40,000 bases of DNA from Stigonema ocellatum SAG 48.90 = DSM 106950 (lineage in GTDB: Bacteria > Cyanobacteriota > Cyanobacteriia > Cyanobacteriales > Nostocaceae), in the NCBI GenBank assembly GCA_016903675.1, contig JADQBA010000016.1, positions 60,238-100,237 on the forward strand, read 5' to 3'. Each line of letters starts with the position of its first letter. Position 1 is the first letter of the stretch. Shown piece after piece: positions 33,752 to 39,316 of this stretch. The notes under the pieces are model-generated. The model did not search any database and was not told the DNA's origin. It saw nothing but the letters and a program-made list of their open reading frames with translations. The position numbers and the translations under genes are program-made.

Positions 33752-34636
33752 ATGCACGTGTTGTTATCTGGATCGCTGAAAGTAGAGAAATTGACTGTTA
33801 AGATTGCAGATTTACCAGCTTCGTTACATGGGACGAAGCTGGTGCAATTGTCGGATTTGCATTACGATGGTTTGCGGCTGTCGTCCGAAATGTTAGAACA
33901 GGCGATCGCGGCCAGCAATGAAGCTGAACCCGATCTCGTTGTCTTAACCGGCGACTACGTTACTGACGATCCATCACCAATTCATCAACTGGTGTTACGA
34001 CTCAAACATCTACAAAGTCGTGCAGGCACCTATGCTGTACTCGGCAACCACGATATATATTACAATTCCTCAAAAGTAAAAGTTACAGCCGCCCTCAATA
34101 GCATCGGCATTAACGTTCTCTGGAATGAAATCGCCTATCCGCTAGGAAAAGAATTGCCAGTAGTTGGGCTAGCTGATTATTGGTCACGGGAATTCAACCC
34201 CAAAGTTGCCATGAACCAGTTAGACCCTACAACACCCCGCATCGTATTATCGCACAACCCAGATTCTGCTGAGATATTGCAACAATGGCGGGTGGATTTG
34301 CAACTATCTGGTCATACCCACGGCGGTCAAATTGTCATACCAGGACTTGGTCCTCTAGTAGTCTATTATAAAAAGCTCCTTTGCAAATATCAAAAGTTCC
34401 TTTACAAACTTCCCAAAAAAGTGCGGCGATGCTTACCATTATTGCGAGTAGACTGGACTAAAGTTGTGCGACATTGGGAATGGTCCCAAGGGTTTCACAA
34501 AGTGGCCAAAAATCAACTATACATTAATCGCGGCTTAGGAACTTATCTACCCGGACGTCTGTTTTGCCCACCAGAAGTTACTGTAATTACTTTACAAAGA
34601 GAATTGGGAGTGGGGAGTGGGGAAAGAGGGTGTTGA
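33752..34636 (+). CDS. Calcineurin-like metallophosphoesterase
   Basis: 294-aa ORF with SDLHYD, LTGDYV, LGNHD, SHNPD and SGHTHGGQI. Confidence 0.85.
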   Translation: MHVLLSGSLKVEKLTVKIADLPASLHGTKLVQLSDLHYDGLRLSSEMLEQAIAASNEAEPDLVVLTGDYVTDDPSPIHQLVLRLKHLQSRAGTYAVLGNHDIYYNSSKVKVTAALNSIGINVLWNEIAYPLGKELPVVGLADYWSREFNPKVAMNQLDPTTPRIVLSHNPDSAEILQQWRVDLQLSGHTHGGQIVIPGLGPLVVYYKKLLCKYQKFLYKLPKKVRRCLPLLRVDWTKVVRHWEWSQGFHKVAKNQLYINRGLGTYLPGRLFCPPEVTVITLQRELGVGSGERGC

Positions 34637-34639
34637 TGG

Positions 34640-34719
34640 AATCTCTTGCAAAAGTCATGAGTCTTGGTTTGCGTCTTTGCGTCTTTGCGTGAGGCAAAAA
34701 AAGATTTCTGCAAGAGATT
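34640..34719. repeat. Hairpin-type dispersed repeat (arms AATCTCTTGCARAARTC) flanking a TTTGCGTC octamer x3; fills the convergent intergenic gap
   Basis: aatctcttgca (34640-34650) is the exact reverse complement of tgcaagagatt (34709-34719). The internal sequence is tttgcgtctttgcgtctttgcgtg. Confidence 0.75.
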
Positions 34720-37025
34720 TAATCAACAGGTAATAGCGTAATAGTCTTGTCTCCATTACCACTAGCGACGGTCTTACCATCTGGGCTAAAGGCAACGCAA
34801 TAAATCGGTTCTTCATTTCCTGTAAAAGTACGGAGTTCCTTACCCGTATCCACCTGCCAAAACTTGATCGTCTTGTCTTTACTACCACTGGCTAGAGTCT
34901 TGCCATCTGGGCTGAATGCAACAGAATAGATTTCGTCAGAATGCCCCGTGAGAGTACGGATTTCTTTACCACTTGACAGTTGCCAAATCTTGATTGTCTT
35001 GTCTGTACTACCACTGGCTAGAGTCTTGCCGTCAGGACTGAATGCAATAGAATTAATTCCGCCAAATAAGTTAGAATGTCCACTGAGGGTAAGGAATTTA
35101 TTTTCATCCAGATACCAAATTTTGATAGTTTTATCATCCATAGCACCGCTACTAGCTAAAATCTTGCCATCCGGGCTAAAAGCAACGCACAAAACCTCGT
35201 CCGCATGTCCTGGAATAGTATATATTCCTTTATACTTTTCAATCGACCAAAGCTTGATGGTCTTATCTTTACTGCCACTGGCTAAAGTCTTTCCATCCGG
35301 ACTAAACGCTATAGAGTAAACCTTGTTTTCATGCCCTGTAAAAGTGCAGATTTCCTTTCCTGTCACCACATCCCACAACTTTATGATTTTGTCATCATAA
35401 CCACTAGCGATCTGCTTGCCATTAGGACTGAATGCAACTGAATTAACCCCTCCAAAATAGGAAGATTCTTCGTATCCCTTGAGAGTGCGGGGTTCATTGC
35501 TAGCCAAATTCCAAATTTTTATGGTTTTGTCATTACTACCACTGGCTAAAGTCTGACCATCAGGACTAAAAGCGACAGACATAACCTTATCTGAATGTCC
35601 TTTAAGAGTTCGTATTAATATTAAGTTCTGCTTTATTGGCTGTGATGTAAGTGTAGTGACATCTGGTGTAACCGCCTTAGTTATTTTGTCATCTAACAGA
35701 GGATTAGAGCCTTCCTCTAGCGCAACAGGTGAGGGATTTTGAGAAGAACTTGTTGGCGATGCCTGAGGTGGTACTGGTATTGGTGATTTGGAGACGGCGC
35801 TTTCTGGGGGTTCCTCGACTTGAGGCACCAGGGGAGGGGTTTCCTTGATAGAATTAAGTGGCGTGCGAGTACTGTCGGACTGCCATTCGGTTGCTGATGG
35901 CTGTTGAGGACTGGAGTCTTTTTTTACCACAATTGGTGATGTATTTTGAGAAGCACTTGTTTGCGGCGTCTGTGGTGGTACTAGTGCTAGAGATTGGGTG
36001 GTTGCTTGAGGTTTTTGAAGCTTGAAACCTTCTAGTTTTCTAATTTTCTCTGACGTACCCTGTGAGTCCTGCTCAGCCAACGTCAGCGACAGGGTTAATA
36101 CTTGCACTTCAGTCTGGATCTGAGCGATCGCGTACTTTAATTCCTCTATATGTTTTTGAGTATTTATACTTATTTCTCCCATAAGGGCATCAAGTTGAGT
36201 TAAACGCTGTCTGAGTTCATCGATATTATGCTCCTGCTGATTGCGCTGCATTTCCTGGATCTGTTGTTGAGTTGTTTTACTTAACTGTTGTGTTAAGGCA
36301 TCAAGTTGAGTCAGACGCTGGCTGAGCGGCTCAATCTGCTTCTGAGTACTTGTACTCAATTGTTTCATGAGGGCATCAAGTTGAGTCAAACGCTGCCTGA
36401 AATCGTCAATCTTATAGTCCTGCTGGTTGCGCTGTAATTCCTGGATCTGTTGAGTAGTAGTTCTACTTAAGTGTTGTGTTAAGGCATCAAGTTGAGTCAG
36501 ACGCTGGCTGAGCGGCTCAATGTGATTCTCAGTATTTATACTTAGTTGTTCCGTGAGAGCATCAAGTTGATTCAGGTGCTGGCTAAAAGCGTCAACATTC
36601 TGCTCCTGTTGGTTGCGCTTTAATTCCTGGATCTGTTGAGTAGTGGTTATACTCAACTGTTGTGTCAAGGAGTCAAGTTTAGTGAGACGCTGCGAAAAAA
36701 CATCGACGCTCAGTTGCTGGTTATTCCGTAATTGTTCAAGCTGCTGGCTAGTTGTTGTACTCAGTTTTTGCGTAAAGTTATCGAAGTTTTCGAGGCGCTG
36801 TCTGAGTGGGTCGATCAGTAAGTCTAGTCTGGTGAGGGCTGCTTGGTGATCCTGCTGGTTCAAATACTTTAACCTTTCCCGATTAGCTACGTTCAAGCCG
36901 ATAGTTAAAGTCAAAGGCGCTACGGCGTAGACAATTTGTTGAGTGACTGCTGCTGTGACGATGCCAATTGTAGACAGAGAAAGGGAGACATATTCGCTAA
37001 CTTCGAGCCAGTGGAGTTGTGTCAT
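34719..37025 (-). CDS. Membrane-anchored coiled-coil / Pro-rich linker / 7xWD40 repeat protein
   Basis: 768-aa ORF. It has an N-terminal hydrophobic segment, then repeated QRLTQLDALTQQLS units. Two P/S/Q-rich stretches follow. Seven WD blades (IKIWNL, IKLWDV, IKLWSI, IKIWYL, IKIWQL, IKFWQV, ITLLPV) complete the protein. Confidence 0.8.
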   Translation of the reverse strand: MTQLHWLEVSEYVSLSLSTIGIVTAAVTQQIVYAVAPLTLTIGLNVANRERLKYLNQQDHQAALTRLDLLIDPLRQRLENFDNFTQKLSTTTSQQLEQLRNNQQLSVDVFSQRLTKLDSLTQQLSITTTQQIQELKRNQQEQNVDAFSQHLNQLDALTEQLSINTENHIEPLSQRLTQLDALTQHLSRTTTQQIQELQRNQQDYKIDDFRQRLTQLDALMKQLSTSTQKQIEPLSQRLTQLDALTQQLSKTTQQQIQEMQRNQQEHNIDELRQRLTQLDALMGEISINTQKHIEELKYAIAQIQTEVQVLTLSLTLAEQDSQGTSEKIRKLEGFKLQKPQATTQSLALVPPQTPQTSASQNTSPIVVKKDSSPQQPSATEWQSDSTRTPLNSIKETPPLVPQVEEPPESAVSKSPIPVPPQASPTSSSQNPSPVALEEGSNPLLDDKITKAVTPDVTTLTSQPIKQNLILIRTLKGHSDKVMSVAFSPDGQTLASGSNDKTIKIWNLASNEPRTLKGYEESSYFGGVNSVAFSPNGKQIASGYDDKIIKLWDVVTGKEICTFTGHENKVYSIAFSPDGKTLASGSKDKTIKLWSIEKYKGIYTIPGHADEVLCVAFSPDGKILASSGAMDDKTIKIWYLDENKFLTLSGHSNLFGGINSIAFSPDGKTLASGSTDKTIKIWQLSSGKEIRTLTGHSDEIYSVAFSPDGKTLASGSKDKTIKFWQVDTGKELRTFTGNEEPIYCVAFSPDGKTVASGNGDKTITLLPVD

Positions 37026-37208: not shown

Positions 37209-38921
<1,713 letters not shown>

Positions 38922-38951
38922 AAATGGTATCATTATATGTGTTATCCATTT

Positions 38952-39316
38952 GGGGCTGTAGCTCAGCTGGATAGAGCGAGCGCCTCCTGAACTATCGGGC
39001 ACCATAGAGGAAACTCTATGAGTGAATGTGGTTAAATTCGGTGAACCCTAAAAAGTGAGAAGTCCGTTGTCACACTCAAGTGTGATGATTAGGGCAAAAG
39101 CTACCAGATTATTGGTGCTGAGACTTTATGGGAATACCGAGCCAAGCCTGAGTTGAAACGACAGACCAATATTACAAGTTCGACTCAGGAAGGTGTAGAG
39201 ACTAGTAAGCCACCACCTAAGGGCTTTAAGTCTAGGGTGAAGGTATAGTCCAGAGAGTGGGGAAACTCACACAAATCTGAAGCGCTAGGTCGCCGGTTCG
39301 AATCTGGCCAGTCCCG
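38952..39316 (+). tRNA. trnR: tRNA-Arg(CCU) interrupted by a group I intron after anticodon position 36
   Basis: Hand fold of exon 1 (38952-38988): GGGGCTG TA GCTC AGCTGGATA GAGC G AGCGC CT CCT. Exon 2 (39280-39316): AA GCGCT AGGTC GCCGG TTCGAAT CTGGC CAGTCCC G. All four stems pair, with one G-U in each of the acceptor and T stems. A20 is present and the anticodon is CCT. Confidence 0.85.
38989..39279 (+). ncRNA. Group I intron (IC3, Azoarcus-like core), 291 nt, no ORF
   Basis: Core blocks match the Azoarcus tRNA intron as I remember it: gtggttaaattcggtgaaccctaa, ccgagccaagc and gaaggtgtagagactagtaagccaccacctaaggg. The last 5' exon base is U and the intron ends in G (39279). The intron GGG at 38997-38999 can pair with exon CCU (P1, including U-G). 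Confidence 0.8.

Follow-up and report, generated by a model that had tools for sequence, protein, structure and literature searches.

In the window, i.e. the whole 40-kb stretch of DNA analysed here, the segment 38952-39316 (plus strand) is a tRNA-Arg(CCU) gene that is split by a group I intron of IC3 type. Based on an intron-aware tRNA search, a covariance-model match, covariation among homologues and comparisons of the flanking locus in other genomes, we propose an explanation that we regard as very probable in its entirety: an IC3-type ribozyme occupies a conserved tRNA-Arg(CCU) locus, is spliced by the mechanism outlined below, descends from an ancestor that carried an HNH endonuclease gene and has been inherited vertically. 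A preceding sequence-only reading had also described a tRNA-Arg(CCU) gene interrupted by an Azoarcus-like group I intron, and covariance model, cloverleaf and covariation concur on this description. The coordinates of the individual features are collected in Table 1.

Table 1 Features of the interrupted tRNA-Arg(CCU) locus, in window coordinates (A1, structure-blind alignment of 34 cyanobacterial homologues; intron numbered from 38989 as 1)
Feature	Position	Strand	Evidence and remarks
Tocopherol cyclase gene, synteny anchor	37824..38921	+	Pfam PF14249, E 3.6e-165
Promoter-like site TTGGCA-16 nt-TATCAT, TG before second hexamer	38906..38933	+	Consensus scan, 10/12 matches
5' exon	38952..38988	+	Acceptor and D arms, 5' strand of anticodon stem; ends C32 U33 C34 C35 U36 (ARAGORN)
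Group I intron, 291 nt, IC3/Azoarcus-like	38989..39279	+	RF00028, ARAGORN, homology to at least 78 other tRNA-Arg(CCU) introns
Internal guide sequence GGG, intron 9-11	38997..38999	+	Read from sequence; G9-G11 invariant in 34 homologues
P2 hairpin, intron 12-21 with 26-36	39000..39024	+	94.4% of cells paired over ten pairs; changes on both sides in six
L2 GAAA tetraloop, intron 22-25	39010-39013	+	Invariant in A1
P3 5' strand, intron 40-45	39028..39033	+	Partner 39208-39213; 100% of cells paired
P4 5' strand, intron 49-54 with 148-153	39037..39042	+	Partner 39136-39141; 99% paired, nearly invariant
P5/P5a 5' strand with receptor-like CCUAAA	39047..39056	+	Partner 39123-39131 (UAUGG); intron 59-60 with 142-143, 64-68 with 135-139
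HNH gene stump, frameshifted, 3'-terminal, fills L5	39048..39116	-	Stop TAG = complement of 39048-39050
P6/P6a hairpin, intron 154-155 with 204-205, 159-171 with 190-201	39142..39193	+	A1 pairing test
P7 5' strand: G210, bulged A211, G212-A216	39198..39204	+	Partner 39246-39251; six pairs invariant, 100% paired in 34
P3 3' strand, intron 220-225	39208..39213	+	A1 pairing test
P8 hairpin, receptor-like CCUAAG...CUAGG	39216..39237	+	Intron 228-229 with 248-249, 233-237 with 241-245
P7 3' strand UAGUCC, intron 258-263	39246..39251	+	Conserved J8/7 GAAGGUA just before
P9 hairpin, intron 267-273 with 278-284	39255..39272	+	100% paired; one pair alternates G-U/A-U
L9 GAAA tetraloop, intron 274-277	39262-39265	+	Invariant in A1
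Terminal guanosine (omega G), 3' splice site	39279	+	G in all 78 related introns listed; invariant in A1
3' exon	39280..39316	+	A37 A38, 3' strand of anticodon stem, variable loop, T arm, 3' strand of acceptor, discriminator G

A tRNA-Arg(CCU) gene with an insert after U36

When introns are allowed, as the sequence-only reading had advised, ARAGORN calls tRNA-Arg(cct) with two 37-nt exons and an intron of 291 nt; in its default setting, in which no introns are allowed, it returns no tRNA in the 40-kb window. The insert lies between ...CTCCT and AAGCG..., i.e. after U36 and before A37, with the same length and site that had first been read from the letters, and the same agreement holds for the last base of the 5' exon, a U at 38988, and the last base of the intron, a G at 39279. 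The joined exons, submitted to ARAGORN as one sequence, fold into the expected complete cloverleaf with anticodon CCU. The 3' exon does not encode CCA. A20 and C35, identity elements for ArgRS in E. coli, are both read in the sequence of this tRNA. Moreover, the joined exons are identical to the uninterrupted tRNA-Arg(CCU) genes present at the same locus in the relatives L248 and L255, so that the splice junctions are fixed independently by these intron-less alleles.

Upstream of the gene, a promoter-like site ends 19 nt before tRNA position 1. One such site is present in the scanned stretch, against 1.4 expected by chance, so that it is only the placement that is suggestive of a promoter.

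The insert has the core of an IC3 group I intron

Rfam model RF00028 (Intron_gpI) matches 38976-39272 over its full length (model positions 1-253 of 253) with 55.1 bits and an E-value of 1.9e-11, above the gathering score of 50 bits. This match, obtained by the covariance-model search that the earlier reading had named as a check, is the sole Rfam match across the 40-kb window. A pattern for the P6-P7 core likewise has a single match in the window, and 100 shuffles yield none. The segments that had been singled out as near-verbatim IC3 core are located at 39035-39052, 39138-39148 and 39189-39205, followed by ccacctaaggg; near-identical strings, AAAUUCGGYGAAMCCUAA, CCGAGCCAAGC and GAAGGUGUAGAGACUAG, belong to the Azoarcus core. 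The architecture is compact and of IC3 type, with a P2 helix, no P5abc, a P9 that bears a tetraloop, and a location in the anticodon loop of a tRNA.

The secondary structure was derived from complementarity, and each of the 62 pairs in the model is a standard one in the window sequence. When 34 cyanobacterial homologues are aligned with MAFFT, blind to structure (A1), 91.6% of the pair cells are standard, a share that falls to 28-41% once the 3' partners are shifted by 1-3 columns; both sides change in 25 pairs, and the observed covariation score was reached by none of 500 shuffles. Changes on both sides support P3, P5, P6 and P8. In P3, the pair G42-C223 turns into A-U in eight sequences, and the pair 45-220 is U-A in ten sequences and C-G in 24. 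In P5, C59-G143 and C60-G142 are invariant, and the adjoining P5a has 84.6% of its cells paired, three of its pairs having changed on either side. P6/P6a shows such changes in 10 of its 12 distal pairs, its 73% of paired cells being the figure for a length-variable region in a structure-blind alignment. The outer two pairs of P8 are invariant and the inner five are 85.6% paired, with four changed on both sides. In A1, P1, P4 and P7 do not vary, nor does most of P9, and they are accordingly uninformative on pairing, neither for nor against.

P7 forms a pseudoknot with P3 and, by analogy to other group I introns, would represent the guanosine-binding helix. P1 would consist of exon nucleotides C34-C35-U36 paired with G11-G10-G9, with a U36-G9 wobble at the 5' splice site, as judged from the sequence; covariation is impossible for this helix, because the anticodon cannot vary. 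For P10, i.e. pairing of the 3' exon with intron positions 1-8, nothing conserved or convincing was detected in A1, where intron positions 4-5 vary among relatives.

The intron belongs to a large cyanobacterial family

A scan of 185,579 species-representative genomes for CCTCCT followed by a gap of 26-56 nt and AAATTCGGYGAAMCC returned at least 119 loci. Of the matches listed, 78 are tRNA-Arg(CCU) genes interrupted by an intron in the same place, and each of these 78 introns ends in G. The matches listed further include six cyanobacterial copies cut by the edge of the locus and five Comamonadaceae tRNAs with the same intron that are mis-typed by ARAGORN, and which we read as tRNA-Arg(CCU) from the CCUCCU of their anticodon loop. 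The latter (L192, L207, L221, L234 and L239, from Curvibacter, Limnohabitans and Burkholderiaceae) have the intron after CCUCCU and are typed as His(atg) or Arg(acg). About 25 of the 119 matches listed were discarded as chance matches in protein genes. The window's own genome is absent among the matches listed.

Cyanobacterial-type introns are found in at least 46 genomes (40 complete copies and the six at a locus edge). All named hosts of these copies are cyanobacteria, four loci being unclassified or doubtfully binned metagenome-assembled genomes (MAGs). The host genera include Fischerella, Tolypothrix, Scytonema, Brasilonema, Pelatocladus, Atlanticothrix, Moorena, Microcoleus, Kastovskya, Phormidesmis, Leptolyngbya, Stenomitos and Alkalinema, together with a member of the family Chroococcidiopsidaceae. 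The remaining matches listed are mainly from Burkholderiales, Arenicellales or sponge-associated Gammaproteobacteria. By neighbour joining on 190 well-aligned columns, the introns of cyanobacteria fall into a single clade with subclades that follow host taxonomy, and the window intron is placed among those of Scytonema, Brasilonema, Fischerella and Tolypothrix, inside the Nostocales clade. Its best matches among those listed are Nostocales copies, with 77-78% identity over the full length. The intron phylogeny proposed in the sequence-only reading was realised for the homologues, where it follows the hosts.

The window intron is a member of a large cyanobacterial family, abundant in public genomes, of which no description was found in the literature searched: the search returned no account of a cyanobacterial tRNA-Arg(CCU) group I intron, with the studies of Paquin from 1997 and 1999 outside its coverage. 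The sequence-only reading had treated an intron in tRNA-Arg(CCU) as the situation described for Agrobacterium and had implied that it is unusual for cyanobacteria. The parallel in host gene stands, but the oddity does not, as the same site and a syntenic locus are shared across cyanobacterial orders.

For three loci the host label conflicts with the content, likely through mis-binning or contamination. In L126, a Candidatus Sericytochromatia MAG on a 3.4-kb contig, the intron is of cyanobacterial type and the tocopherol cyclase shares 74% identity with that of the window; the introns of L128 (a Paceibacteria MAG) and L150 ('Sphingomonas sp.') group with those of Burkholderiales. Separately, 'group I introns' of 22-49 nt have been listed for other tRNAs, including Arg(ACG) (PMC5733544); these were set aside as too short for group I ribozymes.

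An antisense HNH gene in L5 and its stump

Nine relatives have introns of 674-832 nt. In seven of them the antisense strand of L5 contains an ORF of 125-179 aa for an HNH endonuclease (PF13391 HNH_2, E 4e-12), which is intact with 153-155 aa in L141, L209, L300 and others. In L274 and L303, metagenome loci with 832-nt introns downstream of the cyclase gene, a sense-strand LAGLIDADG_2 ORF of 206-240 aa is present instead (PF03161, E 2.5e-37); with LAGLIDADG in these two and HNH elsewhere, two unrelated endonuclease families have colonised this intron. Introns of 674-711 nt with an intact antisense HNH ORF are seen at L141:5886-6559 (Pelatocladus), L238:2385-3058 (Atlanticothrix) and L209:2649-3326 (Chroococcidiopsidaceae), and the same type of ORF occurs also in L124, L184, L232 and L300.

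The HNH ORF reaches into the receptor-like helix P5 at both ends: its start codon is complementary to a CAT within the 3' strand of this helix, and its stop codon to a CTA within the 5' strand, CCUAA. In the window, L5 is unusually long (intron ~63-126, window 39051-39114) and aligns colinearly with the first 64 nt of the insert, 450 nt in length, that L141, L238 and L209 carry, at ~80% identity and including a 26-nt block at 96%; ~385 nt of the insert are missing. No intact HNH ORF is present in the window: ~22 C-terminal codons are left, with a frameshift inside CPNHH. The antisense translation reads NNLVAF..LECDNGLLTF up to the stop codon, with SFCPNHH in the shifted frame, and the corresponding stretch of the intact protein is TDNLVALCPNHHWEFDNGLLTF, again followed by the stop. 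The former start codon is gone as well: CAT has changed to TAT, and with this change the receptor is again the canonical UAUGG. Two hairpins make up the fold of the stump (-22.8 kcal/mol, z -2.6).

Short introns of other relatives keep other parts of the gene, namely the N-terminal end (MKCxHCG...) in L135, L197, L249 and L269-L273, both ends in L313 and only the C-terminal end in L292, and these different remnants indicate that the endonuclease gene was lost several times independently. We propose that a mobile ancestor intron carried an antisense HNH homing-endonuclease gene in L5, and that, in the lineage of the window, deletion of ~385 nt of this gene would have produced the frameshifted C-terminal stump. 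The window intron is probably immobile now and vertically inherited.

State of the copy and proposed splicing mechanism

Judged against the columns that are at least 85% conserved in the 34 homologues, the window intron departs only inside L5 and at one J7/3 position, T218, which it has in common with the relatives L136 and L182; with the departures confined in this way, there is no sign of core decay. A ribozyme that splices poorly is on this sequence very unlikely; the gene would then either be dead, leaving AGG codons to tRNA-Arg(UCU) or to another tRNA-Arg(CCU) gene, or depend on a protein cofactor. Such a view could draw on the lack of a clear P10 in A1, on the 66 nt of leftover coding sequence in L5 beside the P5 receptor, on the many relatives that do without the intron, and on the scope of the analysis, which covers the gene within the 40-kb window, with the remaining genome outside it. 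However, every modelled helix pairs in the window, the conserved columns are kept as described, and the exons are identical to intron-less alleles that look functional, at a conserved locus rather than a duplicate position. The stump need not harm the ribozyme either, because relatives with the same core tolerate 450-nt inserts at the same place in L5. The intron most likely self-splices to yield a normal tRNA, as far as its sequence tells. For the tRNA-Arg(CCU) intron of Bartonella, self-splicing has been demonstrated in vitro and in vivo (PMC7717549).

Two receptor-like motifs are present in the window intron, CCUAAA/UAUGG in P5 and CCUAAG/CUAGG in P8, the latter departing from the consensus UAUGG. 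The canonical 11-nt receptor for GAAA tetraloops is CCUAAG/UAUGG. Together with the two invariant GAAA loops, these motifs suggest that L9 docks on P5 and L2 on P8, by analogy with known receptors and with the Azoarcus intron, in which the loops are arranged in this way. The anticodon stem probably aligns the exons, in agreement with what has been reported for the Anabaena tRNA-Leu intron (Zaug et al. 1993, as cited in PMC3984707).

We propose that splicing proceeds as follows, with P1, the tetraloop-receptor contacts, guanosine binding in P7 and the chemistry modelled on general knowledge of group I introns. In the folded precursor, exon C34-C35-U36 would pair with intron G11-G10-G9 to form P1, with the U-G wobble at the splice site, and the two exons would be kept together by the anticodon stem. 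The L2 GAAA loop would engage the P8 receptor, and the L9 GAAA loop the P5 receptor. A free guanosine bound in P7 would then attack after U36. Next, the terminal G291 would enter the same site in P7, and the 5' exon would attack the 3' splice site. The expected products are the free intron and a tRNA of 74 nt with the same sequence as the uninterrupted genes of relatives.

Descent of the intron at the tocopherol cyclase locus

The tRNA-Arg(CCU) gene of this heterocystous-type (Nostocales-like) cyanobacterium lies directly downstream of the tocopherol cyclase gene, where it is also located in other cyanobacteria. The same cyclase adjoins the intron-containing tRNA in at least 34 fetched genome loci, nearly all of them cyanobacterial and ranging from Nostocales to Leptolyngbya and Phormidesmis. 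With the cyclase protein as query, 80 metagenome loci were retrieved, a sample that is not selected for the intron. The intron is present in 17 of the 80; among the 71 loci with a tRNA call, 54 have an intron-less tRNA-Arg(CCU) ~35-40 nt after the cyclase stop, and in nine of the 80 no tRNA was called, mostly for too little downstream sequence.

On a cyclase tree of 96 loci, the presence and absence of the intron requires at least 15 changes, and the nearest cyclase relatives of the window, L241 and L242 (89% amino-acid identity), are without it. Patchiness of this kind, the intron-less closest relatives and the intact HNH or LAGLIDADG homing-endonuclease genes elsewhere in the family would all suit a recent lateral arrival through homing, whether the donor was a different bacterium, a phage or a separate lineage of cyanobacteria. 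A phage copy does exist: a search of GenBank phages gave one match, Microcoleus phage My-WqHQDG (OR578706.1 84823-85108; L240:1501-1786), where an annotated 'tRNA-Arg' of 286 nt is a tRNA-Arg(CCU) gene whose group I-like intron, 213 nt long, occupies the same site; a PD-(D/E)XK nuclease gene adjoins this tRNA gene. Nevertheless, this intron scores below the Rfam gathering score and its core is ~31% divergent from every cellular copy, which excludes it as a recent donor, and the Arg-specific pattern has no match in IMG/VR viral contigs. Divergence of the intron core also tracks that of the cyclase among intron-bearing loci (Mantel r 0.64 for n=34 and 0.75 for n=29, p ~5e-4), the window's intron falls within the Nostocales clade, and an endonuclease gene that is already a frameshifted stump implies residence long enough for decay. 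Precise intron loss accounts equally well for the patchiness, and we consider a recent lateral arrival improbable.

The simplest reading, from the sequences at hand, is that the intron is for the most part carried along with its locus and frequently undergoes precise loss, and the evidence favours mostly vertical descent with many losses and a past homing phase. The present copy hence bears on the question of vertical versus lateral spread for which the sequence-only reading had thought it relevant. The deep intron-positive branches of the cyclase tree stem from the intron-targeted scan and are ascertainment-biased; 'ancient and vertical' is a reading for the Nostocales-level sample and is not proven beyond that. 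As for the patchiness itself, a plausible, though still tentative, history is that an old intron co-diverged with its hosts and passed through a homing cycle driven by the antisense HNH gene, followed by independent deletions of that gene, with the window holding one decayed copy.

Other neighbours of the locus were noted in passing. At 37209-37793 (minus strand) the window encodes a DnaJ-TPR protein (Pfam), next to a 768-aa protein (34719-37025, minus strand) with Q-rich coiled-coil-like repeats and C-terminal WD40 repeats, as read from the translation. In other Nostocales, too, the DnaJ-TPR gene is found close to the tRNA locus, as is a metallophosphoesterase gene (33752-34636 in the window).

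Relation to known tRNA introns

The tRNA-Ile(CAU) intron of Azoarcus sp. BH72 is the IC3 prototype. Its guide, GUG, begins at intron position 9, its L2 and L9 are GAAA loops, receptors of the CCUAAG/UAUGG type lie in P8 and P5, and P5abc is absent. In a comparison by description, rather than by a computed alignment, the window intron shares the position of the guide, the GAAA loops, the types of receptor and the lack of P5abc, but differs in the host tRNA (Arg instead of Ile) and in the guide (GGG instead of GUG). It is also ~85 nt longer than the Azoarcus intron, a difference owed to the L5 stump and to more extended P6 and P9 regions.

In the literature covered, introns in tRNA-Arg(CCU) are described only in alphaproteobacteria (PMC7717549). 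Those of Agrobacterium tumefaciens and Bartonella bacilliformis (BbgpI) have the same host gene and the same insertion after the CCU anticodon (PMC7717549). They belong to another host phylum and are likened to the window intron by description, not by alignment; among the matches listed from our pattern scan there is no alphaproteobacterial copy. Like the window intron, the alphaproteobacterial introns are small and without ORF. A difference is that L5 contains, or once contained, endonuclease genes in the cyanobacterial lineage.

Within cyanobacteria, the introns of tRNA-fMet and tRNA-Leu(UAA) are, like that of the window, group I introns in anticodon loops, but host tRNA and insertion position differ. 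The tRNA-fMet intron is sporadic in its distribution and has a homing endonuclease, I-SspI in Synechocystis PCC 6803, that is specific for the tRNA anticodon region (PMC3073962, PMC8450103). The fMet endonuclease is of the PD-(D/E)XK type and is encoded in P1 on the sense strand, in contrast to the Arg(CCU) family with HNH on the antisense strand of L5 and, in some relatives, LAGLIDADG on the sense strand. An antisense layout is known from I-DirII of a Didymium rDNA group I intron, where the endonuclease gene runs antisense to intron and host gene (PMC3073962). The HNH gene of the Arg(CCU) introns, of which only a stump remains in the window, shares this layout; the Didymium intron, however, is located in eukaryotic nuclear rDNA and its endonuclease gene has its own Pol II promoter and a spliceosomal intron, whereas the intron described here resides in a bacterial tRNA.

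The interruption has practical consequences. Since standard tRNA finders miss the gene, genomes like that of the window appear to be without tRNA-Arg(CCU), which distorts analyses of codon usage and tRNA sets; the same distortion has been remarked for Bartonella (PMC7717549). Of wider interest is that intron-bearing and intron-less alleles exist at one syntenic site, along with an antisense HNH gene that has decayed independently in several lineages, one of these decays being preserved in the window. Intron-less alleles, endonuclease-bearing introns and several independently decayed forms at a single conserved site amount to a natural experiment in gain and loss, by which the long-standing question of vertical versus lateral spread of bacterial tRNA introns can be addressed with existing genome data.

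Related cores in mobile and viral sequences

No match was obtained when plasmids were searched with the pattern. The host-independent P6-P7 core pattern is too broad to be specific for Arg introns, as those of its listed viral-contig matches that lie in recognisable tRNA genes are in phage genes for Leu, Met, Tyr, Lys and Thr. In a review from 2014, all phage group I introns observed to date were located in protein-coding genes (PMC3984707). Among the IMG/VR matches listed, the IC3 P6-P7 core pattern is present in L012, L013, L031-L033, L039, L045, L068 and others, and within the tRNA clusters of phages ARAGORN calls genes for tRNA-Leu(UAA), Met, Tyr, Lys and Thr that contain introns.
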